Part shown: positions 1-62,755 of the stretch, piece after piece
Position numbering within the stretch: the first letter of the stretch is position 1
Layout: each line of letters starts with the position of its first letter
DNA from: an uncultured Pseudomonadota bacterium
Lineage (GTDB): Bacteria > Bacillota > Sulfobacillia > JAUYEF01
Assembly: GCA_964417635.1 (NCBI GenBank)
Contig: CAYQIY010000005.1
Span: 80,681-144,680, forward strand
Direction: 5' to 3'
Length of the DNA: 64,000 nt
Translations under genes and position numbers: made by a program
The notes under the pieces: generated by a model
The model's database searches: none
Seen by the model: the letters and a program-made list of their open reading frames with translations, nothing else
Told to the model about the DNA's origin: nothing

Positions 1-65
1 TGCAGCAGACCAGGGCGGGAGGCCGGTCTTGTAGGCATTTGACAGTGGGCAGGAGGAGCGAACAA

Positions 66-3000
66 ATGAAAGTACGGACTGATAGGATACGGGTATGTGC
101 TGTGCTGATTGCCTGCGCGTTGCTGGTGTCGGTTGCGCCGGCCCGCGCGGCATATGAGGGTGACCAGTACATCAAGGTGAGCACGTCGGTATCCGGAGTC
201 GAGATTATCGAGGCAGGAGAATCCTGCGAAGTCTTGGTCAGCCTCACCGGAGATGAGTTCTCGCTAGACCCAGAACTCGTCGACCCAGACCATGTGCGCA
301 GCAAGAGCATTGTGCTTGTGCTGGACATATCGGGCAGCATGAGCCAGAGAATTGACGGTGTAAAGACCCGGCTCGATGTGTTGAAAGAGAGCACCATAGA
401 GTTCGTGCAAGGTATGGCCGGTACCAACACCAGTATCGCGGTTGTGGCGTATCACACGCATGCCAATGAACTGACTCCGCTTCTTACGATGACAGAGCCG
501 TCCAATGTCTCGTATCTTACGAACTTCATCTCCAACCTGAGGTACCTGAATATGACGAATATCGGAGATGGCATGAGGCGGGCGTACTGGCGGCTGATGG
601 GGGCGGATCCTGACTCGGCTAAGTATGCGATCGTCATGACAGACGGCGAACCGAACTACTATACTACTTTGATTTCATCCCGAACAGGTCCGTTTAAGAT
701 GGATGACGGAAATGCTCAGTATACCTTCAGTGACGTGGCACGATCAGTGCAATATGCTTCAGCTTTCGGTGCTCTGTTGGTTGAAGAGCAAGTCAAGTCA
801 TATTTCATCGGGCTGACAACCACGCACTCCGCGAATTTCCAGCAGATTGCGGTCTCGGCTGGTGCCGAAGAAGTACAAGAGGGCGTCAACTATTACAGGG
901 TAGTGACGGCTGAAGAAGTGGACTACGTGTTTAACGATATTCTCGCGGCTTCGATATCTTCTTTCCTCCCGGTTACGGTTGCAGTCGAACAGGTCTTGCC
1001 GCACGGAATCGTTCCCGTGAGCGTTCCGCAGGGTTTTGCCACATCTCTGCTCGCTGACGGCAGGTACATGGTCTCAGGTACTGTGCCTAACATGGGCCTT
1101 CAGAAGAACGAACAGACAGAGATTTACAGCATTACCCCGTGGCAAGGGGTCATAGGTGTGATGTGCGAGAGCACCGGTGTTAAAGACTTTCCAAACGCTA
1201 TGGTGGCGTATACCGACCCGTTCGGCAACGATAAGGTAGCATCTGTCGTGAGCGCTCTCTCTCTTACGGTTGTGGACACGACTGCTCCAACCATTCCTTT
1301 AGCACCGGAGGTCGTCACAAACGACGGCGACCGAGTGCTTATTGGCTGGACGACTTCGTATGACTTCGTCGGAGTCGAGGGTTACGAGGTGCTGCGAGAC
1401 GGGCTGCCGGTGTGGTCGGGGCCCAACACCTCATTTGAAGATGGGAACATCACCCAGGGGGTAAGCTATTCGTACAGTGTGAGAGCGTTTGATGCTTCGG
1501 GTAACGTTTCCACAGAAAGCGAGAGCGTGTTGGTCAGCGTGCCTGATACTACTGCGCCTTCGGTACCCACAAACCTGGCGGTTACTGCCAAGACATCCAC
1601 GAGCATCGCGCTGCTGTGGGATGAGAGTTCAGACAATGTGGCTGTAACAGGCTATACAGTGTACCGAGACGGGCTGCCGCTAGCGTCGATAGGAGGCACT
1701 ACGTATACAGACGACGGGCTCGCAACCGGCGTTGAATACATCTACACGGTAGCTGCCTTCGACGCCGCAGGTAACGAATCTGTGCATAGTGTACCGCTTG
1801 CTGTAAGCACGAACTCGGCGCCTGTCGCCGATGCGGGCGAAGACATAGTCGTAGAGGCTACCTCAAGCAGCGGAGCCGTGGTGCTGCTCGATGCAGCCAA
1901 ATCATACGACCCCGATGGTGACGCGCTCACGTTCTTGTGGACGGGAGTGTTTGGTGCGTCCACCCAAGCCAGATTCGAAGTAGAGATGCCTCTTGGAACG
2001 CACACAATCGTGCTGAGCGTAAGCGATGGACTGCTAGATGCTACAGATAGCGTGCTGGTGTGTGTGCAAGACACCACGCCGCCCGAACTGACAGTGCCGG
2101 GCGATGTGCTTGTTGAAGCCACAGGTGTCGACACCGAAGCAGAGCTAGGCACGGCTGAAGCAGTTGACCTGTTCGCAGTGACGCTGCAAAACGATGCGCC
2201 GTCCGCGTTTGGATTAGGCACCACGACTGTCACTTGGACGGCGACGGACGCAAATGGCAATTGGGTGGCCAAGACACAACTGGTTACGGTGCAGGATACC
2301 ACCCCACCGAATCTGACCGTGCCGCAAGACGTCACGCTCGAGGCCACAGCGCTGCAGATGGCTGTAGACATCGGTGAGGCGACTGCCTCGGACATCTTTG
2401 CGGTGACTATAACGCACGATGCTCCTGTGGTGTTCGAACTAGGAACGACCAGCGTCACATGGGTGGCAACTGACGCAAACGGTAATTTCTCAAGCGCAGT
2501 GCAGCTCGTTACCATTACAGACACAACTCCGCCCGAGCTCATACCTCCTGCAGACGTTGAAGTTGAGGCAACTCAGGTCATGACGCCCGTAGACATAGGT
2601 TTTGCCGACGCAAGCGATATCTTTCTAGCCGATGTGCATTGCGATGCTCCGGCGGCCTACCCGCTCGGCCAGACTGTTGTAACCTGGACGGCAGTCGACA
2701 CAAGCGGTAACTCGACGAGTCGTACTCAGGCAGTGCGTGTCATCGACACGACGCCACCAGTGCTTTCGGTGCCCGCTGACCTGTCATGCGAAGCCACAGC
2801 GCTTCTGACAGGGGTTAATCTTGGCCAGCCGATAGCGGTGGACATATTTGACGTAATAATCACCAACGACGCGCCTCTAGCCGGCTTTGAACTTGGCACC
2901 ACAACGGTTACATGGGTTGCGCAAGACACAAGCGGAAACAGTTGTAGCGGAACGCAGCTGGTCACAATCGTAGACACTACACCTCCTTCACTAACAGTGC

Positions 3001-4028
3001 CCTCGGATCCGATGGCTGAAGCCAACGCTGTGATGAGTGTCGTGTACATCGGAGAACCCATTGTGCACGACATATTCGGCGCCAGTGTTACGAACGATGC
3101 GCCTGACTACTATCCGCTTGGAACGACGTACGTGACGTGGACTGCGGTAGACCCGAACGGCAACTCGTCAAGTGCGGTGCAGCCGGTGACCGTTCTTGAT
3201 ACCACACCGCCTATCCTCAACTTACCGCCGGATATTCTGATTGAGGCTACGGCTGTACGCTCGATTATGGACATCGGTGAAGCCAGCGCATCAGACATTT
3301 TCGATGTGACGCTCTCGAACGATGCTCCGGACGACTTCGGCATCGGCGTTACGCTGGTTACGTGGAAGGCAGAAGATTCGAACGGCAATGTGACGTTGGG
3401 CACCCAAAGAGTTGAAGTGCGAGACACCACTGCTCCAGTGCTCAATGTGCCGCAGGACGTAGTTGCTGTAGCAACAGGAGAGTACACCTACGTTGGTATA
3501 GGCCAAGCGACTGCTACAGATATTTTCCCAGTGACTGTGCAAAATGATGCACCCGTAGTCTTTGGCGTGGGAACGACCACAGTCACATGGACGGCAACTG
3601 ACGCAAACGGTAATGTATCAGTCGGAGTTCAGTTTGTGACTGTTGAAATGCTGAATGCAACTGTTGACCTGGATCCAAACGTGCTGAACCTGCAGAGCAA
3701 GGGTAGTGAGGTATCGATTACTTGTTACGTCGAGCTGCCGAGCGGATACGATGTGTCGCTAGTCGATGTCAACACAGTCGTGCTTGTAATTGGGGACATC
3801 GAAATAGCAGCTCAGAAGAACCCGACGGCACGAGGAGATAATGACCGGGACGGCATCCCAGATCGCATGTTCAAGTTTGATCGTTCACAGGTGACTGCTG
3901 CCATAGAGACTGTCGGCGACGGCACTTGTGTGGTAACGGTCAAAGGAGTGCTCTCAAACGGGTATCTGTTCACCGGTCAGGATAGCATTCGTGTTATTGC
4001 CCCACCGGCACCCAAGAAACCCAGGTAA
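66..4028 (+). CDS. Large secreted modular surface protein: signal peptide, vWA domain, 2x fibronectin type III, PKD-like domain, 7x HYR-like repeats, C-terminal DxDxDG-containing domain
   Basis: ATG at 66 follows AGGAGGAG (51-58); hydrophobic signal peptide ending ARA-A; MIDAS elements DISGS...T...TDG; FN3 motifs (W..S.D.VGV.GY...Y.Y.V.AFD..GN); repeated DTTPP...VTW.A.D..GN units; C-terminal [10 protein letters not shown]. Confidence 0.85.
2070..3647 (+). repeat. Seven tandem HYR-like coding repeats of about 75 aa (225 nt)
   Basis: DTT(P/A)P units start at 2070, 2295, 2520, 2745, 2973, 3198 and 3423 (spacing 225 nt, once 228). Confidence 0.9.
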
Positions 4029-5691: not shown

Positions 5692-7527
5692 TTAGTCGTG
5701 AAATCCTAACAGGCCCAGGTTTCGTCCGGCGAGTACCATGTCGTACAGATCTATCACTCCGTCTGCGTTGAGGTCAAACGATGGGTCGTAGCCAGCGCAG
5801 CCAAACTGCTGCTTGTACGCAGTTGCGAGCAGCGCGAGGTCTCTTGTGTCAACAACGTTATTCCCGTCAATATCTCCTGCTGGCAGTATCATTTCTGCGA
5901 AACTCAAATAGTGTGGCCCTCTGACCCAGTGTGGGATGCTCAGCGCTTGCTTCAGAAAGCCCGGGTGGTGCGCCACGACCCATTCACCTGCCCTGACGCC
6001 CGAGAGCGCGTAGGTGCCATCAAGAGACGGGTGTAACTGAGTCGGGGCTTCTGATATCCATATGCTCAAATCTTGAGGCGCTTTTCCACCCTGCAACGAG
6101 ACAGTACCATCCGCGCTCGAAAACGTGCGTCTCAAGTAGTACACATGCTGCAGACTGTTAGGTATCTCCTTGAACGCGTGTGCTGCCCAACCTAGCACCG
6201 GTCCGCCCGGCAGCATTACGTTGTACCATCTGCAGCGTGTGGCTGTATGAGGGCCCTGCAGCGCGACCACCTGCGTTCCTGCCGGTAGGCTGCCTAGCAC
6301 TTCGAATACCATGCCGGGCTGCTGGCGAATACGCAGTTCTGTCGTGTTGAACACGCTTAACACCGTTCCTGTGTAAAGCGGCCTGAGCGATGCGTTGGTC
6401 TTGCCGGGCAGTGCAAACACGTCTTGGGCTTGGGGAAGCGAAGCCGAAAACGATGAGGCCGGAGGCCGCTTCATATCTTGGCCAAAGCTTATCACGTAGT
6501 CAATGACCTTATCCTGATACGTTCTCACACCCGGAGCCACGTATCCAGGGTTATTCGATTGCGCCCAGCCGTTATACGCCCAGATGGCGAAATACCACGA
6601 TTCAAGAATGTCGTCGTCCATGTTTATCTGAGTAAGGCAGTACGGCTCGCTAAACCAGGGAATGACGTAGCCCGTATACATTTTCTTATCCAGCAGAATC
6701 CTAACGCCTGCTTCAATGTTGAACTCAAGGTCTTCAAGCCTGCTGATTTCCTCGTATGTGAACAGATTGGTATCGGGCATGACCTGCATCAGCCCTATTT
6801 CACCCGACGAGCCTCTTATGACAGAGCCGTCCGTTGTCCAGTGCCTACCGCCGCTTTCGACAAGAGCAATGGCCTTAACGATAACAGGGGGCACGTCGAA
6901 CTCCAGTGACTTTCGAGTTATGAGTTCATCGATAACGGGATCAATCTGGGCGAGAGGCATGCGCTGCACTTCAGCGGGTGAAACCAAGACGTGCGCATCA
7001 ACGTCTGAACTGAACTCGTAGCCATCCCATCGCCAAGTGGTGACAATCTTCTCGGCTGGTTGCAGCCAGGCCGAGTCTTTGCGGTAAGCTAGACGAGTCT
7101 CCACAAGCGTACCGTACCTAATGTCGAGCGTTCCATGCAAAGCGTCGTCTACTCGGATGAGACTCTCGAATCCGCTGTCGGTCGCTGCGACGAGCGCGTA
7201 GCCCATATAGCCGCCGCTGCCGGATAGCCGCCATGAGATAAGCACTTCGGTACGCAAGTCGTCTCTGAGGCGAACTAATTGTATGTCTTGGAGAGAGGCA
7301 AGCGGCACTTCCAACACGTACGGTTCAATCTCATCCGCCCAAACCAAGCTCACGCGAAACCCCGGGCCCAGATCGGGTATCACTTGAGTCTCGATGTAGA
7401 TGGGATTGCCGCCCAGCGATGTCAGGCGGGTATGTGTTGGCTGTGCGCCCACATCAAGTGCGGGTATGAGTAGAAACAGCACGAATGACACAATGCATAT
7501 GCGTATAAGACGTTCTCTCGGCTTCAT
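5692..7527 (-). CDS. Secreted lytic transglycosylase (SLT domain) with SH3-like domain and C-terminal dockerin
   Basis: Signal peptide; SLT motifs AIALVESG, GLMQV and WAYNG; SH3b-like LRIRQQPG...WYNV; duplicated dockerin Ca loops GDIDGNNVVDTRDL and DLNADGVIDLYDM. Confidence 0.8.
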   Translation of the reverse strand: MKPRERLIRICIVSFVLFLLIPALDVGAQPTHTRLTSLGGNPIYIETQVIPDLGPGFRVSLVWADEIEPYVLEVPLASLQDIQLVRLRDDLRTEVLISWRLSGSGGYMGYALVAATDSGFESLIRVDDALHGTLDIRYGTLVETRLAYRKDSAWLQPAEKIVTTWRWDGYEFSSDVDAHVLVSPAEVQRMPLAQIDPVIDELITRKSLEFDVPPVIVKAIALVESGGRHWTTDGSVIRGSSGEIGLMQVMPDTNLFTYEEISRLEDLEFNIEAGVRILLDKKMYTGYVIPWFSEPYCLTQINMDDDILESWYFAIWAYNGWAQSNNPGYVAPGVRTYQDKVIDYVISFGQDMKRPPASSFSASLPQAQDVFALPGKTNASLRPLYTGTVLSVFNTTELRIRQQPGMVFEVLGSLPAGTQVVALQGPHTATRCRWYNVMLPGGPVLGWAAHAFKEIPNSLQHVYYLRRTFSSADGTVSLQGGKAPQDLSIWISEAPTQLHPSLDGTYALSGVRAGEWVVAHHPGFLKQALSIPHWVRGPHYLSFAEMILPAGDIDGNNVVDTRDLALLATAYKQQFGCAGYDPSFDLNADGVIDLYDMVLAGRNLGLLGFHD

Positions 7528-7840
7528 GGCTTACTCCACGACCGTGCTGAGTTCAGGAGGCAGCATACCGTCCTGAAGTAGATTCGCTCTTGCTTCCTAG
7601 ATGCCACACTCGTTTTTCGACACATGCGCTGCGGATGCCTCTATGTACGTGAGGCAAACATGAACAGTGCGGAAGACTTACTCTGATGAGAACGGAGACG
7701 CTGCTCTACTATCCGATTTAGTTGACTGCGCTACGCTAACTCAGACGTTTGGTCTCTCAACAAGCAGCTGTCATGCAGTTTTTCTTTAATACTACAAATA
7801 TTGCAGCTATATCCTAATATATGTGCGAGATACGGCTTTC

Positions 7841-8008
7841 GGTCAGGGGACATTGTTCCCGGCTCGAAAAGCCCGGTGTCAGTTTTGGCCGGTTATTTGG
7901 GCCGATACCATATTGTAACTGTCGTTCGGGACCAGAAGGTTTGGGCAGATTGTCGCCGAAGCATAGACGGGTGAGCTTTCGTACGTGTTCTTTGCATAGC
8001 CCCAGACC
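7841..8008 (+). ncRNA. Candidate structured RNA of unassigned class (6S-like rod or cis-regulatory leader)
   Basis: Nested complementarity found by hand: 7841-7849/8000-8008, 7865-7872/7975-7981, 7882-7889/7955-7962, 7891-7899/7946-7954, 7902-7909/7938-7944; several G-U pairs favour the + strand; no known family consensus recognised. Confidence 0.3.
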
Positions 8009-10032: not shown

Positions 10033-10061
10033 ACAACCCGCGCCGGTGGTGCGCGGGTTGT
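10033..10061. terminator. Hairpin between convergent genes, probable bidirectional terminator
   Basis: ACAACCCGCGC-N7-GCGCGGGTTGT, 11-bp perfect stem; weak U tail. Confidence 0.55.
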
Positions 10062-10078: not shown

Positions 10079-10678
10079 TTAGTTCAACACGCCGAGCCAG
10101 TCTCGAAGCAGGAACGAAAACCTTCCAATGATGAGCGACATACGAGCCATGACCGTGTTGCCATAAGCTGCGCCGAGCGCTATCATCAGCATCCACCGTC
10201 CGGCACGTCCGGCAGTACGAAGCGGTCCTGCTGCTGCTTTTGCAGTGAAGAAGAAGTACATCACGCTTACGCTAGTACCTACCACGATTATCAGGTTATT
10301 GATTGTGTTCAGCGGCAATACGGTGCTTCGAATCTGTCTTACGAGGTTTGCGTCAATAACACCTACGAGCGACAGCGCCGCGCCCACCCCGATAAGAAAC
10401 GCAATCGATAGCCTGCTGTACACCGCGTAGTTCTTAAAGAACCTGGCGTAGAGCAACACGCCGAATAGAAGCGGTACTATCCATAGTAACTGTCCTTGAA
10501 GTAGCGGCGTGACTGCCATCGTGCGTACGTTGAAGAATGCTGTCACAAACGTGTGTGCCGCGACCAAAGCCACGAACACGTGCTCGGCGAGGGTAAAAAG
10601 CGGATTGTCCTTATACAGGTAACTATAGATAGCAATTGTGGCTATCGCTGCCAACCAGACTCCGAAATCCATAGACAT
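10079..10678 (-). CDS. Uncharacterised polytopic membrane protein (gene 4 of a four-gene cluster)
   Basis: About 6 TM segments; YSYLYKDNPLF..AEH and ALGAAYGNTVMARMS motifs; starts 1 nt after the upstream stop. Confidence 0.75.
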   Translation of the reverse strand: MSMDFGVWLAAIATIAIYSYLYKDNPLFTLAEHVFVALVAAHTFVTAFFNVRTMAVTPLLQGQLLWIVPLLFGVLLYARFFKNYAVYSRLSIAFLIGVGAALSLVGVIDANLVRQIRSTVLPLNTINNLIIVVGTSVSVMYFFFTAKAAAGPLRTAGRAGRWMLMIALGAAYGNTVMARMSLIIGRFSFLLRDWLGVLN

Positions 10679-10679
10679 G

Positions 10680-11510
10680 TTATTTGGCCCCCTTACCGGA
10701 GCGGCTTATCATGCGTTCGCCGATGTTGCCCATGATGATAAACAAGATGAGCAGTGCATGTGTCAGCGACTGAGCGTCCATTCCAGCTGCGCCATTTCCG
10801 GGGCGGCGTATCAGTATCTCGTATTCAGCGGCGCCTCTCAGCCCGGACAGCACACCGGATATCTGACCTGCCTGAATGTGAGGAGTGAGGATAGGCGTCA
10901 CAACACCTGTGGCTCCTCCCGTTACCGCCGTGCCGTGTACCGTGTGCACGAGCCTGACGAAATAGAGCATGCTGTTTCCAGTGATGAAGTCGACTATTAG
11001 CGCTATGTCCTTAATAGAGTTTACTTTTGCCCACAGTTCAAAATTGGTTAGAGGTACACCGTTTACGTCCTCGGTGTAAAGTCCTCGGAGGTCATGTCCG
11101 ATTGAAGCTACGGTCGGTTCTTCGCCAGCGGTGAACGGCATTATGATGTAATCTCTTCCGTACTCGTAGTTGTACTCAGGAGCCATCTCGTCCATTATCT
11201 TGCGCGCGTACATCGGAGAGTCAGCAGCGAGCGATACCCATATAAGCTTGATGCCTCTACTCATCAGGTGATGCACCTGGGCGACGTTCTGCGGGAGCAG
11301 TTCGGCTTCGCTGCCCGGGTTGTAAGCCGGTGACATTATGACAATTGAGCCTTCAGGCAAGTTCTCTATGGTTTCATATGCCTGACGAGTATATGGGCTG
11401 ATAGAAAGCGGAAGTCCCATCGGGTTCATGAGCGGGATCACAACGGCGAAGATCACGAGCAGGAACAGAATCCTGCGGTCCATACCCTCTAACTTCTGCC
11501 ATACGTTCAT
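10680..11510 (-). CDS. Uncharacterised membrane-anchored protein, TM-soluble domain-TM (gene 3)
   Basis: RBS AGGAGG; N-terminal TM after DRR; about 215 aa soluble domain; GLRGAAEYE...GMDAQS then C-terminal TM. Confidence 0.75.
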   Translation of the reverse strand: MNVWQKLEGMDRRILFLLVIFAVVIPLMNPMGLPLSISPYTRQAYETIENLPEGSIVIMSPAYNPGSEAELLPQNVAQVHHLMSRGIKLIWVSLAADSPMYARKIMDEMAPEYNYEYGRDYIIMPFTAGEEPTVASIGHDLRGLYTEDVNGVPLTNFELWAKVNSIKDIALIVDFITGNSMLYFVRLVHTVHGTAVTGGATGVVTPILTPHIQAGQISGVLSGLRGAAEYEILIRRPGNGAAGMDAQSLTHALLILFIIMGNIGERMISRSGKGAK

Positions 11511-11534
11511 AACAATGTCGCCTCCTTTCCGGCG

Positions 11535-12161
11535 CTATTCGCCCATGCCGCCAAACTGTGAACGTTCGAGTCCAAGTATGACTCTAAAACACATAGATAT
11601 AGCGCCCAGCGCTCCGCCGATGGTGATTCCGCGCATTCCGGCTGTGTTCGGTATCTGCATTATCCAGTTCGCGACGTCGGGCATGCCCTTATACATCGCC
11701 TCGCCTATTCCGACCCTGCCTAACATGACGAGCATGCCTGCAAGCACGAGCAAAGCAGCTTCAGTAGTGCGGAAGCGGAAAGCGCGGTACGCTGCAGACG
11801 AAATCCAGAACGCGTTCAGCGAGAACACGGTGGCGTTTAGCGGCTGTAGAAGGTTGTTCCATACGTAGCGGTAAGGTGTACTCTGAATTCCAGTCGCTAT
11901 TCCGAGGATCGTAAACGCTATAAGACATACTATCAGCACAAGGCTATATTGCCACGTTCCTCTCTTCTGGTTCACGCGGCGACTGTGTACGAGCATCAAG
12001 TTAGCCACGCCTAGTCCGGCGGCGAACGCAGCCACCACGACATTCCAGCGCATCAGTTCGTTATTCGCGGTCTTAAGGAAAGGGATATTGAGGAACCAGG
12101 CAAGGATGACGGTCATTCCGAAGATGAAGGTTATCGCTAAGGGTAACTCTTTGCGTACCAT
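11535..12161 (-). CDS. Uncharacterised polytopic membrane protein (gene 2)
   Basis: 5-6 TM segments; SAAYRAFR.R..EA and IPNTAGMRGI.IG.ALG motifs; G-rich RBS. Confidence 0.75.
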   Translation of the reverse strand: MVRKELPLAITFIFGMTVILAWFLNIPFLKTANNELMRWNVVVAAFAAGLGVANLMLVHSRRVNQKRGTWQYSLVLIVCLIAFTILGIATGIQSTPYRYVWNNLLQPLNATVFSLNAFWISSAAYRAFRFRTTEAALLVLAGMLVMLGRVGIGEAMYKGMPDVANWIMQIPNTAGMRGITIGGALGAISMCFRVILGLERSQFGGMGE

Positions 12162-12177
12162 TTGTCTACGCGCCCCC

Positions 12178-12942
12178 CTATAGCTTCATGAACTCAACTA
12201 TTGCGTCACTTCCGAGGGTAAGCAGAATGGAGCCTATGACCATGGTTGCCACTGCGATGTACTTGCACACGTCCTGAGCCATGAGCGCCCCCACTTTGAT
12301 CGGATCAGGGTTGAAATACGCACCTGCGGCATAGATTTCTTCACCTATGAGGGTGTAGTCGCAGGCAACAACGAGAAATGGAAGCTGGCTACCGTCTGTA
12401 GTACCGGCTATCTGAATCGCTCCTACTTTGTACGCTGTCTCGGCTATCTGGAGCCCTTCCGCCCAGAACTGGCCGACCATGATGTTGGTCACAACGCCTT
12501 CTCGCTCCATGATTCCCATGATTCCTGCTACATAAGCCGATTGTTCCTCAGAGATAAACCGCACATCATCGGGACGGTACTTGTCGAGTTTGCCTTGACT
12601 TACGTAGGCTTGACGCACGATCTCGACTGTGAGTGGGTAGACATGTGACCTGTGGTTGGTGACGATTAGGCGGGTGTCGCTGGCAGCGGCCATGTTGGCC
12701 ACGTACTTCAATACGTCCAGACCGGCAAATGTCTGGGCTTCCAGCACGCCGCGGCCTGTGGTGAAATGAATCGCTCTGCCCATTTCGGTGGCACGGCCCA
12801 CGGCTTCGTCCATCACCTGGAGTCCCGCTACGGGTCGGAATGGTACGCGCCCTGTCTTCTTGTACTTGTCGTGACTCATGAAGTATGCAGCGATGAAAGC
12901 AAGAAGGTACAGAAGCGCATAGAGTCTCCCTGGTTCCAGCAA
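12178..12942 (-). CDS. DUF6754-like membrane-anchored protein (gene 1)
   Basis: TTG at 12942, 8 nt after AGGAGG; RPVAGL...EAVGRATEMGR and QLPFLVVACDYTLIGEEIYAAGAY motifs, recalled as typical of DUF6754; N- and C-terminal TM. Confidence 0.7.
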   Translation of the reverse strand: MLEPGRLYALLYLLAFIAAYFMSHDKYKKTGRVPFRPVAGLQVMDEAVGRATEMGRAIHFTTGRGVLEAQTFAGLDVLKYVANMAAASDTRLIVTNHRSHVYPLTVEIVRQAYVSQGKLDKYRPDDVRFISEEQSAYVAGIMGIMEREGVVTNIMVGQFWAEGLQIAETAYKVGAIQIAGTTDGSQLPFLVVACDYTLIGEEIYAAGAYFNPDPIKVGALMAQDVCKYIAVATMVIGSILLTLGSDAIVEFMKL

Positions 12943-12974
12943 ACCTCTCACCTCCTGCAGATTATGGAAGATTA

Positions 12975-13002
12975 ATTCTAATGAGATAAGGCAATATCCT
13001 TC
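12975..13002 (-). promoter_or_regulatory. Sigma-H-like promoter of the four-gene membrane operon
   Basis: Minus strand GAAGGA-N18-GAAT, matching the Bacillus SigH consensus pattern. Confidence 0.5.
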
Positions 13003-13142
13003 CAATATAGCCAGTAATTGGGATTATGTTAGTGTTGTAGAATCACTCATTCATTAAGGGTCATCGACAGAGTCTCGCTGAAGGAACACGCTGGTCAGAG
13101 GAAGAAACTACCGAGATAGGGGAAAACGCTGGAGGAAGCGAC

Positions 13143-14357
13143 TTGGACGTGAGCCAGAGGCTGTCATCGATTCTCTCAAGACCGCGCACTGCAGCTGTAA
13201 TACTTCTCGGTATGTGTATCGTGCTGGTGTTGGGAAGTATCGTGCCTCAGGGCCGAGGCCCAGGAGTATACATTGACAACTACGGCCGACTCGGGGCACT
13301 CATGCTTCTTTTTGGGCTGGATCGAGCGTTCTCTTCGCCACTGATGTTCTTGCTTGTGTTGTGTCTTAGCGCAAGTCTTATCTGTTGCAGTGCCCAGCGT
13401 GTGCGTTCGTTGAGTCGAGGCCGGATCTTAATAGCCGCCCCCGAGAATGTCGTCGAAGTGTGTGCTGCTCGTGAGGGCTGGGCTGAAAGCGTGGCCTGTT
13501 TGCTCGAAAGACGCGGATTCAGGCTTTCACGTGAGTGCGATAGCATCAGGGCGCATACAGGTCGTGCCGGCATGTATGGTTCGTTGGTTGTGCACGTTGC
13601 GCTTCTTGTCATAATCTTAGGAGCGACCATCACTGCTGGGTTCAGCAGGGAAGAAATCGTGTGGATTGAACCCGGCAGCCGTGGAGAAGCGATGGGGCTT
13701 TCGTTAGAAGTATCCACCTTTGCCATACAGCGTTACCCGGACATGAGTCCGCGCCAATTCATAACAGCAGGAAGCGTTTCGGCCGCTGGCGAAGCGCTGG
13801 CGGATTTCGAAGTCGCCGTGAACAGACCAGCTCGATACAAGGGCATCGGCATATACCAGTCCGGCTATGACTGGGTTGTGACGCTGATTGCAGCCGGAGG
13901 TTCGCTAGAACCGCATCGTCTGAGTCTTTCGCCCGGACAGAGCAGCGCTCTGCCAGGCGGTGAGCTGTACCTGATGTTGTGGGAGTTCGTGCCGGAACTA
14001 TCTGAGCATCACGGATGCGCCAACGTTGTCATACACGACGGCCAAAACGTTGTGGCACTTTGGCATCTCGACCCGGGCACGAGGAAACACACCGGCGATA
14101 TCTGGGTTGAGATGGCTGGCTTTTCGCCTATTACAGGGCTTATGCTCAAGAAAGACCCGGGCACGCCTGTTGTTATGGCAGGCGCGGTGTTGCTGTTAGT
14201 GGGTTTGGCTCTGGTTCTCTTTGTGACTCCGCGCGAACTGATTGTGAGAGAAAACTCACAAGCTATGTTAGAACTGAGCATGCGAGCGCGCAGGCTGCAA
14301 CCGCAAAGCATTAGAAGCATTGCAGAAGAGATCCGCTCTTTGGAGAAAGGGGTGTGA
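13143..14357 (+). CDS. resB: Cytochrome c biogenesis protein ResB/CcsB (system II)
   Basis: LGSIVPQ, GSLVVHVALLVII, VAVNRPARYKGIGIYQS and KDPG.PVV..G motifs; TTG after GGAGG. Confidence 0.85.
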   Translation: MDVSQRLSSILSRPRTAAVILLGMCIVLVLGSIVPQGRGPGVYIDNYGRLGALMLLFGLDRAFSSPLMFLLVLCLSASLICCSAQRVRSLSRGRILIAAPENVVEVCAAREGWAESVACLLERRGFRLSRECDSIRAHTGRAGMYGSLVVHVALLVIILGATITAGFSREEIVWIEPGSRGEAMGLSLEVSTFAIQRYPDMSPRQFITAGSVSAAGEALADFEVAVNRPARYKGIGIYQSGYDWVVTLIAAGGSLEPHRLSLSPGQSSALPGGELYLMLWEFVPELSEHHGCANVVIHDGQNVVALWHLDPGTRKHTGDIWVEMAGFSPITGLMLKKDPGTPVVMAGAVLLLVGLALVLFVTPRELIVRENSQAMLELSMRARRLQPQSIRSIAEEIRSLEKGV

Positions 14358-14361
14358 TTCT

Positions 14362-15153
14362 CTGACTCCGCACTTATGGCAGGTATCTCTGGTACGCGCG
14401 ACAGCAGTGTTATACGCGCTGGCGAGTGTGTCGCTTTGGGCATACTGGTCGAGGCGTGCACACGGACTAGCGCTGGCTGCAAGAGTGCTGGTATGGCTAG
14501 GGTTTTTGTGCAACACGCTTGCGATAGGCTTACGTGTCCACCTTACACAGAGGGCTCCGTTTGCTAATCAGTATGAGTTTGCATTGGTGTTCGGTTGGGG
14601 AATAGTGCTCGTTCTGATGATTGTTTCTGGACGGTTACGAAGGCTCGAACTTGCAGTGTTCAGTATGCCCCCGGCAGCCCTGGTGATGTTATATGCTTGG
14701 ATGCTACCGGCTGATGTGCGCCCGTTGATGCCAGCGCTTATGAGCACGTGGCTCGTGATTCACGTAGGGCTGGCGGTTGTATCATACGGCTCGTTCGCAG
14801 TTGCCGCCGGGATAGGGGCTCTCGTCTTGGTTGGAGGTAAGCGGCTTAACCTTGCGGCGCTCGACCAGATGAAACAACGCATCGTAATCGTAGGGTTCTT
14901 TGGGCTCACGCTCGTCATCATTACAGGTGCCGTGTGGGCGCACCAGGCGTGGAGTCGCTACTGGGGATGGGACCCGAAAGAGACATGGTCGCTTATTACG
15001 TGGATAGTGTATGCGGTGTACTTGCACATGAGCCTTAACCGAGGATGGACGGGAAGACGTTCTGCGTATCTCGCAATCATAGGATTTGCGCTCGTGCTGT
15101 TTACCTACGCCGGAGTCAATCTGTTGATGTCCGGACTTCACACCTACAGGTAG
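14362..15153 (+). CDS. ccsA: Cytochrome c biogenesis protein CcsA/ResC
   Basis: WWD domain GAVWAHQAWSRYWGWDPKETWS; WLVIHV; C-terminal GLHTY; start uncertain (CTG at 14362 after AAGGGGTG is the best RBS-supported codon). Confidence 0.9.
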   Translation: MTPHLWQVSLVRATAVLYALASVSLWAYWSRRAHGLALAARVLVWLGFLCNTLAIGLRVHLTQRAPFANQYEFALVFGWGIVLVLMIVSGRLRRLELAVFSMPPAALVMLYAWMLPADVRPLMPALMSTWLVIHVGLAVVSYGSFAVAAGIGALVLVGGKRLNLAALDQMKQRIVIVGFFGLTLVIITGAVWAHQAWSRYWGWDPKETWSLITWIVYAVYLHMSLNRGWTGRRSAYLAIIGFALVLFTYAGVNLLMSGLHTYR

Positions 15154-15163
15154 GTGAGGCTTT

Positions 15164-16336
15164 GTGAAAAGGTCGTATCTTGTGGTTGGGGTGGCGCTCA
15201 CAGCGCTCGCGCTGGCGGCTCACTACTTGTTTCCGAGTACGTGGCGCACCTTGCCCCTGACGCAAGACCCTGCAGTGTGGGGCAAGGTTTACCCGCTTCA
15301 GTATCGCTCATTTATGCTTGGCGAGCGTGAAGTAGAACATGTGGCCAAAGCCGAAAAGCATCCCTACATCACCGTGGTGTACGCAGGCAACGCGTTTTCA
15401 CGAGAGTTCAACGAATCCAGGGCGCACAATTACTCACTTGACGACCTGCTGGCCACCGCTCGCGGTAGGCCGAGCGCGTCATGCCTGTTGTGCAAGACAT
15501 CAGACGTGGTAAGGCTCATAGATAGCATGGGATGGGACAGCTTTAGCCGTGCGTCGTTTGACCAGTTGGCAGCGTCTGTATCCCACCCAGTGTCGTGCGC
15601 AAACTGCCACGACCCAGAGGGCATGTCGCTTAGGGTTTCGAATCCTGCACTGCTTGCTGCAGTAGACAGCCTCGGTTGGGAGTCTAAACTTCGTGATCAC
15701 GACAGCATGCGAAGCATGGTGTGTGCTCAGTGTCACGTGGAGTACTACTTTGACCCAGATTCACAGCACACGATATTCCCGTGGAAGATGGGATTAACGC
15801 CTTCCGACATTGAATCTTACTTTGAGAACATCGGTTTTGCTGACTGGGTTCATCCGTTGGCGAAAGTGGGTGTCGTGAAAATACAGCACCCAGAATTCGA
15901 GACCTTCTGGGGCAGCGTGCACCAGCGGATTGGTTTGTCGTGCGCCGACTGTCATATGCCGAAAGTGGTCACCGACGGCAAGACTCATACATCGCACTGG
16001 TGGACTAGTCCAATGAATCATCTGGCTGAATCGTGTGGCTCGTGCCATCAGGATATGGGCAAACTTGCCGTGCGAGTTGAGACGCTGCAGGCCGACGTAT
16101 CAGCCAAACTCAAAGAAGTGGGGGAAGGCCTGGCGAATCTCGGCAGTACTATGGCATCGCTTCCGGAAGCGACAGAAGGATTGGACCAGGCGAGAACGCT
16201 GTACGCTCGAGCACACCTGCGCTGGGATTGGGTATTCTCGGAGAACAGCACCGGTTTCCACAATAGCGCTCTGGCGCACAGCATTCTTGATGAAGCGCTT
16301 GGGTACATAGAACAGGCGCGTGGTTTGCTGCAGTGA
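15164..16336 (+). CDS. nrfA: Pentaheme cytochrome c nitrite reductase (ammonia-forming) NrfA
   Basis: CLLCK plus four CxxCH motifs (CANCH, CAQCH, CADCH, CGSCH); catalytic motifs SRAH, HVEYYF, KIQHPEFE; ENSTGFH. Confidence 0.93.
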   Translation: MKRSYLVVGVALTALALAAHYLFPSTWRTLPLTQDPAVWGKVYPLQYRSFMLGEREVEHVAKAEKHPYITVVYAGNAFSREFNESRAHNYSLDDLLATARGRPSASCLLCKTSDVVRLIDSMGWDSFSRASFDQLAASVSHPVSCANCHDPEGMSLRVSNPALLAAVDSLGWESKLRDHDSMRSMVCAQCHVEYYFDPDSQHTIFPWKMGLTPSDIESYFENIGFADWVHPLAKVGVVKIQHPEFETFWGSVHQRIGLSCADCHMPKVVTDGKTHTSHWWTSPMNHLAESCGSCHQDMGKLAVRVETLQADVSAKLKEVGEGLANLGSTMASLPEATEGLDQARTLYARAHLRWDWVFSENSTGFHNSALAHSILDEALGYIEQARGLLQ

Positions 16337-16624: not shown

Positions 16625-17407
16625 TCAGTGCTGTACGAGATCAGAAGGCTGCAGATGCTGCTCTTGTTCGGAAGGTGTAACTGAAGGACGGCTTGCTAGC
16701 CCGCTGAGTATGCCCGACCGAACGACTATTCCCAGTAGTCTCCCATCTTTGCTTATGACGGGTATTGGGTATTTTGCGGTTGCGCCCATAGGAACCAGTT
16801 CTTCGAGAGAGATGTCTGGAAACACCGCCGGGATATCGCTCGTGAGGCATCCCAGAAGGTCTGTCTCTTTTCTCTCAATGGCACTTAGCGCGTCGTCGGC
16901 CGTTACTATTCCCGCAAGACGTGCTCTGTCGTCAATTACGAACACGCTAGAGATCTGGTGTTTGCGCATTTCCCTGAGCGCTACCCTGGGACCGTCCTTT
17001 TTCTTCAGAAGAGCGTCAGGCTTGTTCATGATATGTTCGGCGCGAAGCACACTCCACGGATTCATACCTTGGACGAACTCTGCAACGTAGTCTGTGGCTG
17101 GCGAACGGAGCAAGTCCTCAGGAGTGCCTATCTGGTGTATGATTCCGTCTTTCATCACGGCGATGTGATCGCCTAGTCGCAGCGCTTCATCGAGGTCATG
17201 CGTTATGAACACAATGGTCTTGGCAATCTGCGTCTGCAACTGTATCAGTTCAGACTGCATCTCACGCCTGATGAGCGGATCGAGTGCACTGAACGGCTCG
17301 TCCATCAACAGCACCGCAGGCTCGTTTACTAGGGCACGCGCCAGGCCGACTCTCTGCTGCATTCCTCCGCTCAGATTATCAATGGGACTCGTTTCCCAGT
17401 CTCGCAA
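16625..17407 (-). pseudogene. proV: 5'-truncated glycine betaine/proline ABC transporter ATPase (ProV/OpuAA) with CBS domains
   Basis: Retains LSGGMQQRV, Walker [14 protein letters not shown]-loop ITHDLDEA and tandem CBS domains; Walker A and the whole N-terminal part are absent. Confidence 0.8.
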
Positions 17408-17745
17408 GTGGGTCCCAAGTCAATCACCGTGCCAGCTTCTGTGACCTTCGTATACCAATCCATGACGTTGGTGCGCCAGAGTTCCATCTGCACGTCTATC
17501 TGTCCATTTTCTAAAGACTGCTGAAACACAGGCGTTGTAACCGTTATTGTCTCCACAGGGTAGCCGTATCCCTCTTCGATTATGAACTTGGCGATTGCGT
17601 TGTTTATCCAGAGCGTCTGAAAAGAAGTGCCGGCCATCCGGATGGGCTCGGCTCTCAGGGCGCCATCGGTACCTGGCCTTGACAGCGCAAGCACCACTAT
17701 GGCTGCTCCAACCACGACAAGACCAATAAGAAGTCGTCTGTTCAT
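17371..17745 (-). pseudogene. proX: 3'-truncated glycine betaine ABC transporter substrate-binding protein (ProX/OpuAC-like)
   Basis: N-terminal membrane anchor; NNAIAKFIIEEGYGYPVE and IDVQMELW motifs; resemblance ends at IDLGP (about 17411), after which the frame runs into proV sequence and stops. Confidence 0.7.
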
Positions 17746-17955
17746 CGTCACATCCATCCTCAACGTTTTGTCTACCCAGTTCGTAGTATGTTCATTGACA
17801 ACAACGACCAATTCGAACTTGCTCACAACGAATACAAACCAGAGAGGAATGCACTGCTAAGTGACATGGAGTCGACAGCGAGGCCCAAGACAGAACAGAA
17901 GGCCGAGAGAATACCCCGGCCTTCTCAGTGTGATCTCATTGCTCGATTGGCTAGT

Positions 17956-59823: not shown

Positions 59824-60073
59824 AGCGAGTCAAGATTCGCTTCACATACTCTCTGTCTTGCCGCAGGCTGGTGAATGTGCACCAGCCTGCGCGGCTGCAG
59901 GCAGGCACATGTGAATACTCTAGATAAGACAGCGACGAGGTTTTCAACGGGCCAGGGCTCGTCTCGACAGTTCTTACTGTGGCAGTTAGTACACCAATCT
60001 GAAAGGGCCGATATATGTTGCTATCACAAATGTTGGTGACATCAGCATATTATTGAAAAAACCTTATATCCTT

Positions 60074-60100
60074 AAAGGATTGTCGTGAACGACACGGAAT
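60074..60100 (+). promoter_or_regulatory. Sigma-H-like promoter
   Basis: AAAGGA-N17-GAAT 33 nt upstream of ATG 60134. Confidence 0.55.
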
Positions 60101-60133
60101 GCATACGCAAGATAAAGGAAGGGTGAACGGTCA

Positions 60134-62755
60134 ATGCGCAAAAAAAGGAGCAAATGGAAAGCATTGTCGTTGGTTTTGCTAATGGCTTGCTGCGTCGCGT
60201 TCGTGGGCATTCGACATGCGCATGCTGACACTGAAGGATATTTCACCTATTCTGTGACTGAAAATGAATCTCTGATAACAGTATACAGTTCCGACGGACC
60301 CAAAGACGTTGTGATTCCGGAGGAGTTAGGCGGCTATCCTGTTACAGGCATTGGTTCTCAAGCATTCTTGAACCAGGCGATAACCTCTCTAGTCATCCCA
60401 AGCAGCGTGACAAGCATTGGCAACGGTGCGTTTCAAGGCAACCATCTGACGTCGTTAACCATTCCGAGTAACGTTACCCATATCGGAGTCAATGCGTTCT
60501 CGTATAATAAGCTGACTTCACTAACTATACCTAACAGCATAACGGCTATCCCTGATAACGCGTTTCAGTTTAACGAGCTGACCTCGGTCACCATTCCGGA
60601 TAGCGTGACCAGTATTGGGTTATATGCCTTTTACCAGAACAAGTTGTCCTCGGCAACTATCCCGAACAGCGTGACGAGTATCGGGGGCTCTGCGTTTTAT
60701 GGCAACAGACTGACTTCGATCAACATCCCAAACAGCGTTGCAAGTATAGGGGACTCCGCATTCGGGAATAACCAGCTGACGTTACTTCACATACCCCAGA
60801 GCGTGACAAGTATGGGCTTCAATGCGTTCGCGCATAATCTGCTAGAATCGGTGACCATCCCAAACAGTTTGACGAGAATTGACCAGGGTGTGTTCTCCAA
60901 TAACCGACTGACGTCGGTGGTCATCCCCGATAGCGTAACGATCATTCATGCTTGGGCTTTCGACACAAACTATCTGACCTCGCTGACAATCCCTGATAGT
61001 GTTACCGCCATCGGGGTGTCGGCGTTTGCCAATAACCAACTGACGTCAGTAGATATTCCCGGTAGCTTGACCGTTCTTGCGGATGGAATCTTTGCCTACA
61101 ACCAGCTTGCCTCAGTCGTGATTCCTGACGGGGTGACAAGTATAGGCAATGACTGGTCACCGAGCTATGGAGCATTTACGGGTAATCAGCTTACTTCGGT
61201 AAGCATTCCGGATAGTGTAACTCACATTGCGGCCCGCGCATTTAACAATAATAGACTCACCTCAGTGACTATTCCTAACAGCGTGACGAGCATCGGAGTG
61301 TATGCATTTGCTGGCAACCAACTTTCTTCGGTGAGTATCCCAGAGCAGGTAGCGGTGATTCAGCAGGGCGCGTTTTCCGATAACCAACTGACCTTGGTGA
61401 ACCTGCCCGCTGGACTAACCCGTATTGACGACTATGCATTTGCACAGAACATGCTCACTTCGGCAACAATCCCTGATAGCGTGGTATCTATCGGTCAGTA
61501 CGCGCTCGCGAACAATGAGCTCGCCTCTTTGTCCATCGGCAACAGCGTTACTACTATTGGGCGAAGCGCATTTGAGAACAACCAGCTGACTTCTGTAGAC
61601 ATACCCAGCGGCATAAGTGTCATTCAGCCAAACGTGTTCGCCAGAAACCAGCTTACCTCGGTGGCAATTCCCGCTGGCGTCACACTTATCTGGAACGGAG
61701 CATTCCATAGCAACCAGCTAACATTTGTGGATATTCCAGACAGCGTAACAGCTATTCTGTGGGACGCATTCGCCAACAACCTGCTCACTTCGGTACACCT
61801 ACCGGATAGTATAACGAGCCTTCGAGAACGAGCATTTGCGAACAACCAGTTGACCTCGGTGATTATACCGGCTCATGTCACGACTATCTGGGACGGAGTG
61901 TTCCAGAATAACTACCTGACCTCAGTAGATATCCCGGACGGTGTAACAACCATTGATACTAATGCTTTCAGGAGTAACCAACTCACATCGGTAACCATTC
62001 CTGCTTCTGTTACGAGCATAGGTAGCCAGGCGTTCAGCGATAACCAACCGAATCCGGCCGACCTAACAATATACGGGGTGGTCGGCTCAGTCGCTCAGAC
62101 TCATGCTGATGTGAAGGGATATACTTTTGCAGAGATCCAGAGATACGCGGTCAGTCTGAGCGTGAGTCCTGAGGACGCAGGCGTGGTAACAGGCCAGGGT
62201 ACCTATGACAGGGGTGCCAGCGTGAGAGTAGAGGCCGAGCCCAACTTCGGTTATGTGTTCGTCAACTGGACGGAAGATGGAGACGCCGTAAGCCTGGATG
62301 CCCACTATGCGTTTACGGCTGAAGCCGACAGAGACTTGACGGCGAACTTCATGCTGAGGGAGTATCTAATTCACGCCGACTCTACTTCAGGTGGCAGCGT
62401 ATTGGGGGCAGGAGTTTACGAACACGGGGCTACCGTAACACTGGTGGCCGTACCGGAGCAGGATTGCTTGTTTGTGCGCTGGACAGAATCTGGGGTTCCG
62501 GTTAGCAGCGAGCCAACCTACGTTTTTACGGCAACTGAGGATCGTGTGCTGAATGCCGAATTTGAACCGGTGCAGATCGCATTGCCCGGAGATGTCAACC
62601 ATGACGGCGTTGTTGATATCCAAGACCTTGCACTGGTAGCCATGTATTACAGGTTGTCTGTTGCCGCAAACGACCCTGAGTGCATCTACGACCTAAACGG
62701 CGACGGTGTGATAGATATCTACGATCTCGTCATAGTGGCAAGAAACTGGACATAA
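60134..62755 (+). CDS. Secreted BspA-type leucine-rich repeat protein with two InlB-B-like repeats and C-terminal dockerin
   Basis: Signal peptide AHA; N.LTS..IP.SVT.IG..AF repeats; G.G.Y..G..V...A.P...Y.F..W repeats; GDVNHDGVVDIQDL...DLNGDGVIDIYDL. Confidence 0.9.
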   Translation: MRKKRSKWKALSLVLLMACCVAFVGIRHAHADTEGYFTYSVTENESLITVYSSDGPKDVVIPEELGGYPVTGIGSQAFLNQAITSLVIPSSVTSIGNGAFQGNHLTSLTIPSNVTHIGVNAFSYNKLTSLTIPNSITAIPDNAFQFNELTSVTIPDSVTSIGLYAFYQNKLSSATIPNSVTSIGGSAFYGNRLTSINIPNSVASIGDSAFGNNQLTLLHIPQSVTSMGFNAFAHNLLESVTIPNSLTRIDQGVFSNNRLTSVVIPDSVTIIHAWAFDTNYLTSLTIPDSVTAIGVSAFANNQLTSVDIPGSLTVLADGIFAYNQLASVVIPDGVTSIGNDWSPSYGAFTGNQLTSVSIPDSVTHIAARAFNNNRLTSVTIPNSVTSIGVYAFAGNQLSSVSIPEQVAVIQQGAFSDNQLTLVNLPAGLTRIDDYAFAQNMLTSATIPDSVVSIGQYALANNELASLSIGNSVTTIGRSAFENNQLTSVDIPSGISVIQPNVFARNQLTSVAIPAGVTLIWNGAFHSNQLTFVDIPDSVTAILWDAFANNLLTSVHLPDSITSLRERAFANNQLTSVIIPAHVTTIWDGVFQNNYLTSVDIPDGVTTIDTNAFRSNQLTSVTIPASVTSIGSQAFSDNQPNPADLTIYGVVGSVAQTHADVKGYTFAEIQRYAVSLSVSPEDAGVVTGQGTYDRGASVRVEAEPNFGYVFVNWTEDGDAVSLDAHYAFTAEADRDLTANFMLREYLIHADSTSGGSVLGAGVYEHGATVTLVAVPEQDCLFVRWTESGVPVSSEPTYVFTATEDRVLNAEFEPVQIALPGDVNHDGVVDIQDLALVAMYYRLSVAANDPECIYDLNGDGVIDIYDLVIVARNWT
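60371..62038 (+). repeat. 25 tandem 22-aa BspA-type LRR coding repeats
   Basis: Counted from the translation; 66-nt period; repeat 12 carries a 6-aa insertion. Confidence 0.9.

Follow-up and report, generated by a model that had tools for sequence, protein, structure and literature searches.

The window analysed here, a 64,000-nucleotide (nt) stretch of contig CAYQIY010000005.1 (positions 80,681 to 144,680) from an uncultured bacterium, carries four consecutive minus-strand genes, g1 to g4, which probably encode an undescribed multi-subunit uptake system for amino acids or their small conjugates (dipeptides, N-acyl amino acids and related amides), with paralogs that differ in substrate. This reading was reached because the four genes form a conserved unit, the unit exists in many copies, predicted lysine, tyrosine and tryptophan sensors precede copies of it, and copies stand in operons with amide hydrolases. 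Multiplication into many copies was read as typical of substrate-specific importers. A sequence-only reading of the window had proposed a complex made by duplication of a two-gene unit, plausibly serving amino acids or peptides. The second idea gained independent backing from a lysine riboswitch, Tyr and Trp T-boxes and the amidohydrolase, peptidase and GntR neighbours of the paralogs; the first held in part. The list of open reading frames (ORFs) gave the four genes as follows, separated by the 16, 24 and 1 nt that had been claimed.

12178 to 12942, minus strand: g1, a DUF6754 protein of 254 amino acids from a TTG at 12942 (PF20539 match, ribosome-binding site with TTG start, identical database gene call)
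11535 to 12161, minus strand: g2, a membrane protein of 208 amino acids and no known family (ORF list, hydropathy, lysine plus arginine bias)
10680 to 11510, minus strand: g3, a protein of 276 amino acids and no known family (ORF list, AlphaFold2 model, lysine plus arginine bias)
10079 to 10678, minus strand: g4, a membrane protein of 199 amino acids and no known family (ORF list, hydropathy, lysine plus arginine bias)

Conserved gene order and copy number

A cassette was defined as the g1, g2, g3 and g4 families all present, adjacent, on the same strand and in that order. The window holds one, and tblastn searches with the four proteins returned the same order at 10 other places in the genome to which it belongs (G000; 3.05 Mb, 46 contigs, 99 % complete). 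G000 thus has 11 full cassettes, and the others are 29–49 % identical to the window's proteins, the closest being the copy on contig C3 (47–49 % identity). Among 41 genomes of the same class, PF20539 was found in 19 and not found in 22; the matches numbered 11 in G000, 28 in G001, 10 in G029, 8 in G006 and 7 in G033.

One genome per GTDB species was then scanned with a g1 alignment as the query, which succeeded where the same scan with a single g1 protein found no relative; at least 614 of 628 candidate stretches were confirmed and 78 loci were returned. These loci were searched with hidden Markov models (HMMs) built from the 11 paralogs of G000, and a g1 gene was taken as testable with at least 2.3 kb of downstream DNA. 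By this survey 70 of the 74 testable DUF6754 genes were followed by g2, g3 and g4 in order (61 directly, and 9 more, with split rows or just past the distance limit, after checking by hand). The loci came from Bacillota (including Fermentithermobacillaceae and Symbiobacterium), WOR-3, Cloacimonadota, Zixibacteria, Eisenbacteria, Stahlbacteria, Phycisphaerae, Ignavibacteria, Armatimonadota, Riflebacteria, Vulcanimicrobiota, Bathyarchaeia and others, and some carried cassettes in tandem (three in L079; two each in L044, L063 and L096). The co-occurrence expected by the sequence-only reading was observed, and the 70 of 74 loci across phyla, together with the 11 full copies in G000, mark the four genes as one conserved unit.

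Of the four exceptions one is a decayed copy, in L032, and three are g1 genes standing alone, in L067, L081 (a second copy, 6956–7744) and L089. At L032:9918–11356 (minus strand) an intact g1 is followed by the first ~20 residues of g2, which run into the last ~80 of g4, and g3 is gone; by its sequence this is a decayed cassette, and it adjoins a UPF0236 transposase gene (11474–12889).

The subunits diverge to different degrees. The most conserved is g1 (42 % mean identity among paralogs, 46 % across phyla) and the most variable g3 (34 % mean identity among the 11 paralogs), whose outer domain is 28–31 % identical among paralogs against 50 % in the membrane-proximal residues 206–247.

Riboregulators upstream of g1

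In L028 (G000, contig C4, cassette at 114714–117544) a full-length lysine riboswitch (7615–7797; 96.6 bits, gathering score 30) precedes g1 by 179 nt, and a hairpin with a U run stands at about 7833–7860, between the riboswitch and the g1 start at 7977. The same lysine riboswitch arrangement precedes a complete cassette in the related genome G001, on G001:C428. T-box leaders were located 50–80 nt upstream of g1 before complete cassettes on G006:C49 (110 bits), G001:C214 (106.5 bits) and G001:C307 (87.3 bits, E 1e-18; the gathering score, 93, was narrowly missed), and another T-box (105 bits) precedes g1 of the decayed cassette in L032. In a T-box a purine follows the specifier codon; by this rule the specifiers would be GAA-A-UAC-A (Tyr) in L032 and G006:C49 and GAA-UGG-A (Trp) in both G001 leaders.

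Passages of PMC2494555 describe T-boxes as switching genes on when the matching tRNA is uncharged, and name as their targets the genes of synthetases, of biosynthesis and of amino-acid transporters, the last from seven known families. Lysine riboswitches are placed by passages of PMC5584792 before genes of lysine biosynthesis and before lysP/gabP, lysW and yvsH, which encode transporters; lysine catabolic genes under the riboswitch are also treated there.

Across the 41 genomes, 2 of the 31 lysine riboswitches listed precede a cassette, as do 3 of 65 T-boxes in the five cassette-rich genomes; for the other 36 genomes T-boxes were checked among the matches listed, of 495. No S-adenosylmethionine (SAM) or glycine riboswitch adjoins a cassette in the five cassette-rich genomes. 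Rfam scans of L001–L055, L057–L059, L064 and L075 gave no cassette riboregulator beyond those of L028 and L032; L056, L060–L063, L065–L074 and L076–L108 stood outside these scans, as did the window itself (by cmscan). A thiamin pyrophosphate riboswitch (7302–7407, minus strand), placed back to back with that for lysine in L028, faces a thiamin pyrophosphokinase gene (6034–6762, minus strand).

Genes flanking the cassettes

For G000, 96 flanking ORFs of ten loci were considered, plus the window. Amidohydro_1/3 genes neighbour the cassette in L021, L022 (four genes), L023, L027, L028 and L029, and M20, S58 or M14 peptidases in L025, L027 and L028. The neighbours in L022 include a creatininase, an alanine racemase, a beta-eliminating lyase and an amino-acid dehydrogenase; pyridoxal phosphate (PLP) enzymes also occur among the neighbours of the G000 cassettes. 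GntR-type regulators stand directly upstream in L022, L025 and L030; enzymes of organic acids (PrpD-like, fumarase, aconitase-like and altronate-dehydratase-like) are among the neighbours in L030 and L026. Two of the riboregulated operons continue into amide hydrolases. On G001:C214 the operon behind the Trp T-box goes on with a gene for an amidohydrolase whose closest match is Xaa-Pro dipeptidase (E 1.2e-80; 271 bits, short of the model cut-off of 500), and in G000 the last gene of the operon behind the lysine riboswitch encodes an M20 amidohydrolase (TIGR01891; 269.8 bits, cut-off 153.75).

In the other genomes 228 of the 247 nearest flanking ORFs were scanned, 19 short ORFs having been dropped by hand. 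Amide hydrolases were present no more than two ORFs from the cassette in eight Bacillota loci (L035, L037, L041, L046, L053, L057, L058 and L080), and an M19 dipeptidase at the same distance in the Bathyarchaeia locus L097.

The most recurrent neighbour across phyla was a 600–650-residue 'MutL' protein (PF13941), which stands beside the cassette in 12 of 78 loci (L038, L041, L046, L049, L059, L062, L069, L084, L087, L096, L103 and L104) and, in G000, at L027:3522–6521. We take this family, by its Pfam description, to have the ASKHA fold. Its partner, encoded before or after it, is a protein of 370–460 residues with weak matches to barrel-sandwich-hybrid domains (biotin-lipoyl; RnfC_N up to E 1.2e-7), and the two genes often share a strand with only a few bases between them. 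MutL was considered as the missing ATPase of the cassette and is retained as a lead but not counted in the system: it adjoins one of the 11 G000 cassettes, and the other two of the three MutL genes of that genome lie away from cassettes. The pair could be a shared ATP-using partner or a linked catabolic enzyme.

Family matches

The earlier remark that g1 resembles DUF6754 was borne out by a match to PF20539 (E 5.4e-78, 262.1 bits against a cut-off of 27), which is nearly full length (residues 27–271 of the long frame against profile positions 10–255 of 257). No Pfam or NCBIfam family was matched by g2, g3 or g4 at E ≤ 0.01. In the Pfam and NCBIfam scans none of the four proteins had a match to a family of ATPases, Fe-S proteins or flavin proteins, as had been read from their motifs. 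The PADLOC models of anti-phage defence gave 0 families at E ≤ 0.01 for all four. Profiles of all four proteins returned nothing below E 0.15 in a PDB sequence search, and in the ESM Atlas g2 and g4 matched unnamed clusters only, with no neighbour above a template-modelling score of 0.36 outside their own family. The terms DUF6754 and PF20539 were absent from the 8.09 million PMC papers and 0.36 million bioRxiv preprints searched. With no family for g2 to g4, no PDB relative and no paper in the literature searches, the description of the system as new stands. In one search more than 7,279 DUF6754 clusters at 90 % identity were scored.

Membrane topology and structural models

Topology was derived from family-averaged hydropathy and counts of Lys and Arg. 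The layout of g1 is a short N-terminus, a transmembrane (TM) helix, a Lys/Arg-rich stretch opening a domain of ~200 residues, and a second TM helix; that of g3 is an Arg-rich N-terminus, a TM helix, a domain of ~210 residues, a TM helix and a Lys-rich tail. The arrangement of a soluble domain between two TM helices, proposed earlier for both, agreed with hydropathy and with two high-confidence models. For g2 and g4, which had been described as proteins of 5–6 TM helices, about six hydrophobic segments each were counted, and g4 also has an amphipathic C-terminal helix. By charge bias g2 probably has both termini inside; for g4 a weaker charge bias suggests that the N-terminus is probably outside.

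Outside Bacillota, g1 usually has a signal peptide and 130–730 residues of Fn3-like or BamB-like beta-propeller sequence before the first TM helix (L073, L094, L100, L092, L086, L075, L062 and L099; P0121–P0240); a search for longer g1 proteins gave 1,894 matches at E ≤ 0.001. The outer domains of these forms are Fn3-like repeats with a recurrent D-x-P-N-D-x-G, or a BamB-like PQQ_2 beta-propeller. The signal peptides of the long forms place the N-terminus of g1 outside and therefore the DUF6754 domain inside. From the charge counts, g1 is predicted to have both its N- and C-termini outside and a cytoplasmic Rossmann-like domain, and g3 the reverse, with its domain outside and its termini inside. 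A single g2-g3 fusion (P0241, 491 amino acids; residues 4–214 like g2, 222–480 like g3, joint of ~7 residues) fits a cytoplasmic location of both the g2 end and the g3 start; it is one sequence from one 3.2 kb contig and may be an artefact of assembly or frameshift.

AlphaFold2 modelled g1 with a mean predicted local distance difference test (pLDDT) of 94.0 and a predicted template-modelling score (pTM) of 0.87 (95-sequence alignment), and g3 with a pLDDT of 96.4 and a pTM of 0.91 (80-sequence alignment). Both models have the same order of elements: TM helix, helix, six beta-alpha units and a long TM helix. Foldseek and VIA-align searches with the two models gave generic Rossmann-like matches only, in flat lists and with no specific fold relative; 1kjn, 7pcs, 6zdz, 6m5n, 1id1 and 3l4b were in the lists of both domains and none stands out. 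Across phyla R50, E53, D195 and E202 of g1 are invariant, and E46, E162, E168, E201, D224 and K227 nearly so. In the four-chain complex prediction the score with g1 as partner was 0.66, and the controls with g1 replaced scored 0.00 and 0.00, but a control with g3 replaced scored 0.76; the prediction speaks neither for nor against binding.

Relationship between the subunits

Direct BLASTP of g1 against g3, and of g2 against g4, returned nothing. By hhalign, g1/g3 was the best of the six cross-family pairs, at weak probabilities of 2.8 % (11 sequences each), 7.1 % (deeper profiles) and 8.9 % (permissive run), with E from 0.0037 (the permissive run) to 0.016. The 222-pair alignment, made from sequence alone, agreed with the AlphaFold2 secondary structure at 0.78 against 0.43 ± 0.07 in shifted controls (maximum 0.56), and the motif pairs GAIQIAGTT/GTAVTGGAT and GALMAQD/AGMDAQS that had first suggested kinship were in register in the profile-profile alignment. 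In the models g1 and g3 share one build, and they may share descent. As the two are predicted to face opposite sides of the membrane, any pseudo-symmetry would be inverted and not parallel.

For g2 and g4 the hhalign probability was 1.1–3.0 %, and the deep-profile alignment was non-collinear, with the N-terminal half of g2 paired to the C-terminal half of g4. Their hydropathy correlation was 0.57 against 0.68 with g4 reversed, and neither family was in the other's ESM Atlas structure list. The TAGMRG/TAGRAG motif on which their pairing had in part been based is not kept in the g4 family, where the consensus retains G160, M165, G169 and G173 only. Of the proposed duplication of a two-gene unit, the shared architecture of g1 and g3 was upheld by models and alignment (with weak sequence statistics, 7–9 %), and the kinship of g2 and g4 was not (1–3 %, non-collinear, no better than the reversed control).

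Gene starts, signals and surroundings in the window

The following further features were recorded at the two ends of the cassette.

12943 to 12955, minus strand: ribosome-binding site GGAGGTGA (12948–12955) with spacer before the g1 TTG (sequence read)
13004 to 13032, minus strand: weak sigma-70-like match CTAACA-17-TATATT, 9/12 (promoter scan)
10033 to 10061, minus strand: G+C-rich hairpin, possible terminator (folding against shuffles)

The frame of g1 is open up to a TTG at 13005 (12178–13005), and a start at 13002/13005 had been assumed. The TTG at 12942 most likely begins the gene instead, because GGAGGTGA, a strong ribosome-binding site, stands directly 5' of it and the resulting 254 amino acids equal the length of the database gene call P0001 (100 % identity) and of the paralogs. 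Upstream of g1 the sigma-70 scan gave the 9/12 site only; the region had 5 sites against 2.8 ± 1.6 in shuffles, which is not above chance. The hairpin noted earlier 3' of g4 was recovered with an 11-bp stem (-27 kcal/mol, z -4.1, 0 of 200 shuffles as stable). It starts 17 nt past the g4 stop codon, between g4 and a convergent YgjP-like gene, has no good T run and was not listed by the terminator scan of the region; it is a possible terminator.

Near-identical DNA was present in metagenome runs from sludge, anaerobic digesters and oil fields. In metatranscriptome run X10 two contigs were at least 99 % identical over 10872–11179 and 12614–12796 (parts of g3 and g1), and these RNA-library contigs are a hint that the window's copy is transcribed.

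On one side the cassette is flanked by the convergent YgjP-like metallopeptidase gene and an MFS gene, and on the other by a divergent ResB-CcsA-NrfA cluster. This cluster (13143–16336, plus strand) comprises ResB-like and CcsA-like cytochrome c assembly genes and then a cytochrome c552 (NrfA-type nitrite reductase) gene. Beyond it, at 16625–17826 (minus strand), two short ORFs are pieces of a glycine-betaine-type ABC system (the end of ABC_tran with CBS, and the first third of OpuAC) and look like remnants of broken genes. A 1,329-residue protein with VWA, Fn3, HYR and Ig-like domains, encoded at 39–4028 (plus strand), is by its domains probably a large surface protein. The G+C fraction falls to 0.486 in 60001–62000, against 0.53–0.57 in the rest of the window.

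Uptake model and alternative explanations

In the uptake model, g3 would select the substrate by a variable Rossmann-like domain held outside by two TM anchors, g2 and g4, with about six TM segments each, would form the path through the membrane, and the very conserved cytoplasmic Rossmann-like domain of g1 would gate or couple transport. The roles of selector and inner gate were assigned because g3 is the most variable subunit and g1 the most conserved. The imported compound would then be split or converted by the adjacent amidohydrolase, peptidase or PLP enzyme.

Several results weigh against this model. None of the subunits is like a known transporter in sequence or fold, so the term 'transporter' rests on context and not on homology, and no energy-coupling component, and no ATPase, was found among the cassette genes. 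A riboregulator stands before a minority of cassettes (1 of 11 in G000, 3 of 28 in G001), and of the four RNA families searched across whole genomes (lysine, T-box, SAM and glycine) none lies on the contig of the window's own copy. The T-box cases fall into two groups (Tyr and Trp) and the two lysine cases are counterparts, so that few independent events are represented; the specifier codons are our own readings from cmscan alignments, and the lysine riboswitch before a cassette may act as an off- or an on-switch. Neighbours outside Bacillota are mixed housekeeping genes (PlsX/FabH, PtsI with PGI, M23, GH57) and also TonB-dependent receptors. The large extracellular beta-propeller or Fn3 domains of non-Bacillota g1 are not obviously needed by an importer, and five g1 genes occur without g2 to g4 (L067, the second copy of L081, L088, L089 and L093, the flanks of L088 and L093 being shorter than 2.3 kb).

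The conservation of g1 also suits a membrane-bound enzyme or group-translocation complex of amino-acid metabolism, in which the g1 domain would be catalytic and not gating. Many of its charged residues are invariant across phyla, which suits an active site better than a gate, its Rossmann-like fold is that of many nucleotide-dependent enzymes, and the ASKHA-type MutL with its barrel-sandwich-hybrid partner recurs beside the cassette in several phyla; we consider this explanation unlikely, while ranking it above the three that follow. An exporter of amino acids, peptides or other metabolites is less likely still. MatE or MFS efflux-type genes do adjoin cassettes in L035, L040, L042, L080 and L111, and a lysine riboswitch could switch in either direction, but T-boxes act at uncharged tRNA, as passages of PMC2494555 describe, when export of that amino acid would be harmful, and the dipeptidase-like and M20 amidohydrolases into which operons run fit a compound that is imported and then hydrolysed.

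The domains on both membrane faces, joined by TM helices, could also belong to a sensor or receptor for outside ligands, bound by g3 and the extracellular extensions of g1 and signalled by the cytoplasmic g1 domain. The outer beta-propeller or Fn3 modules of the long g1 forms and the GntR regulators adjoining three G000 cassettes would fit it. Against this, the Pfam and NCBIfam scans gave none of the subunits a kinase, cyclase, HAMP, PAS or DNA-binding domain, two further six-TM proteins would be superfluous, and 11 to 28 copies per genome under T-box or lysine-riboswitch control suit supply genes better, so a sensor was judged improbable, below the exporter. Lowest in our ranking is an ancestral housekeeping machine of the envelope or of membrane biogenesis, with the expansion in Bacillota as a secondary specialisation: the cassette, where single-copy in diderm phyla, lies near PlsX/FabH, M23, Wzi-like and TonB-dependent receptor genes and has g1 proteins with BamB-like beta-propellers, but such neighbours are inconsistent between phyla, the monoderm Bacillota and Bathyarchaeia have the cassette and no outer membrane, and its absence from the matches of 22 of 41 same-class genomes means that it is not essential.

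The uptake reading can be extended, as a tentative proposal that we hold to be less probable than not, to a new superfamily of solute importers that is unrelated to known transporters and widespread among anaerobes, both bacterial and archaeal. A pair of TM-Rossmann-TM proteins, distant relatives of each other and opposite in orientation, would surround two six-TM proteins, the outer domain selecting and the inner one gating or coupling, and in Fermentithermobacillaceae-like Bacillota 11–28 substrate-specific copies would supply dedicated amidohydrolases with amino acids, dipeptides or N-acyl amino acids. If so, the cassette would join the seven transporter families known under T-boxes as an eighth and add a new class to the transporters governed by lysine riboswitches, and thousands of 'hypothetical' membrane proteins would gain a function, including three partner families that have no Pfam entry. 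It would be a main uptake route for amino-acid-derived carbon and nitrogen in digesters, sediments and the subsurface (in protein-fermenting Bacillota, Cloacimonadota, WOR-3 and Bathyarchaeia), and, as a transporter unlike known folds with related soluble domains on both membrane faces, a new object for studies of mechanism. The copies behind riboswitches and T-boxes supply substrate hypotheses, namely Lys, Tyr and Trp.

Comparison with known systems

The Pfam entry for DUF6754 (PF20539) covers g1 alone and carries no function; the three constant membrane partners, the multiplication within genomes and the links to riboregulators are absent from it and from any paper found. No Pfam or NCBIfam match to APC, MFS, NSS, LIVCS, DAACS or NhaC was obtained for g1 to g4, and the roughly six segments of g2 and g4 compare with 10–14 TM helices in a single polypeptide. 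No ABC_tran, BPD_transp or ECF family was matched in the four proteins, and none of the loci searched has an ATPase gene within the cassette. For TRAP transporters, no DctM, DctQ or solute-binding protein family was matched at E ≤ 1 in the four proteins, and the only DctM gene of G000 lies elsewhere (C1:124080); for tripartite tricarboxylate transporters (TTT), there was no TctA match in the four proteins and no PF01970 match in G000. Unlike TRAP (DctP/Q/M) and TTT (TctA/B/C) systems, which have a free two-lobed binding protein, the cassette has an outer domain of one lobe anchored by two TM helices, and it has an additional conserved cytoplasmic domain (g1). The RCK/KTN domains of Trk, Ktr and MthK have no sequence relation to g1, which is held by TM helices at both ends, and in the flat fold list of the g1 domain Sir2, short-chain dehydrogenase/reductase, phosphoglycerate kinase and glycosyltransferase halves score as well as RCK/KTN.

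EmrE-type and Fluc-type proteins are paired small membrane proteins of opposite topology. Like these pairs, g1 and g3 have the same order of secondary structure with opposite lysine plus arginine bias; unlike them, each partner has a soluble domain of ~200 residues, on opposite faces, and the g1/g3 homology is weak (7–9 %). To the permeases behind lysine riboswitches and T-boxes (LysP/GabP, LysW and YvsH; MFS, APC, NSS, DAACS, LIVCS, NhaC and ABC) the cassette has no relation in sequence or fold, and it consists of four separate subunits against one permease or an ABC set. What the cassette has in common with them is the regulatory arrangement, in which a Lys riboswitch or a Tyr or Trp T-box precedes an operon for membrane proteins, and a riboregulator upstream is the classical basis for predicting the specificity of a transporter.

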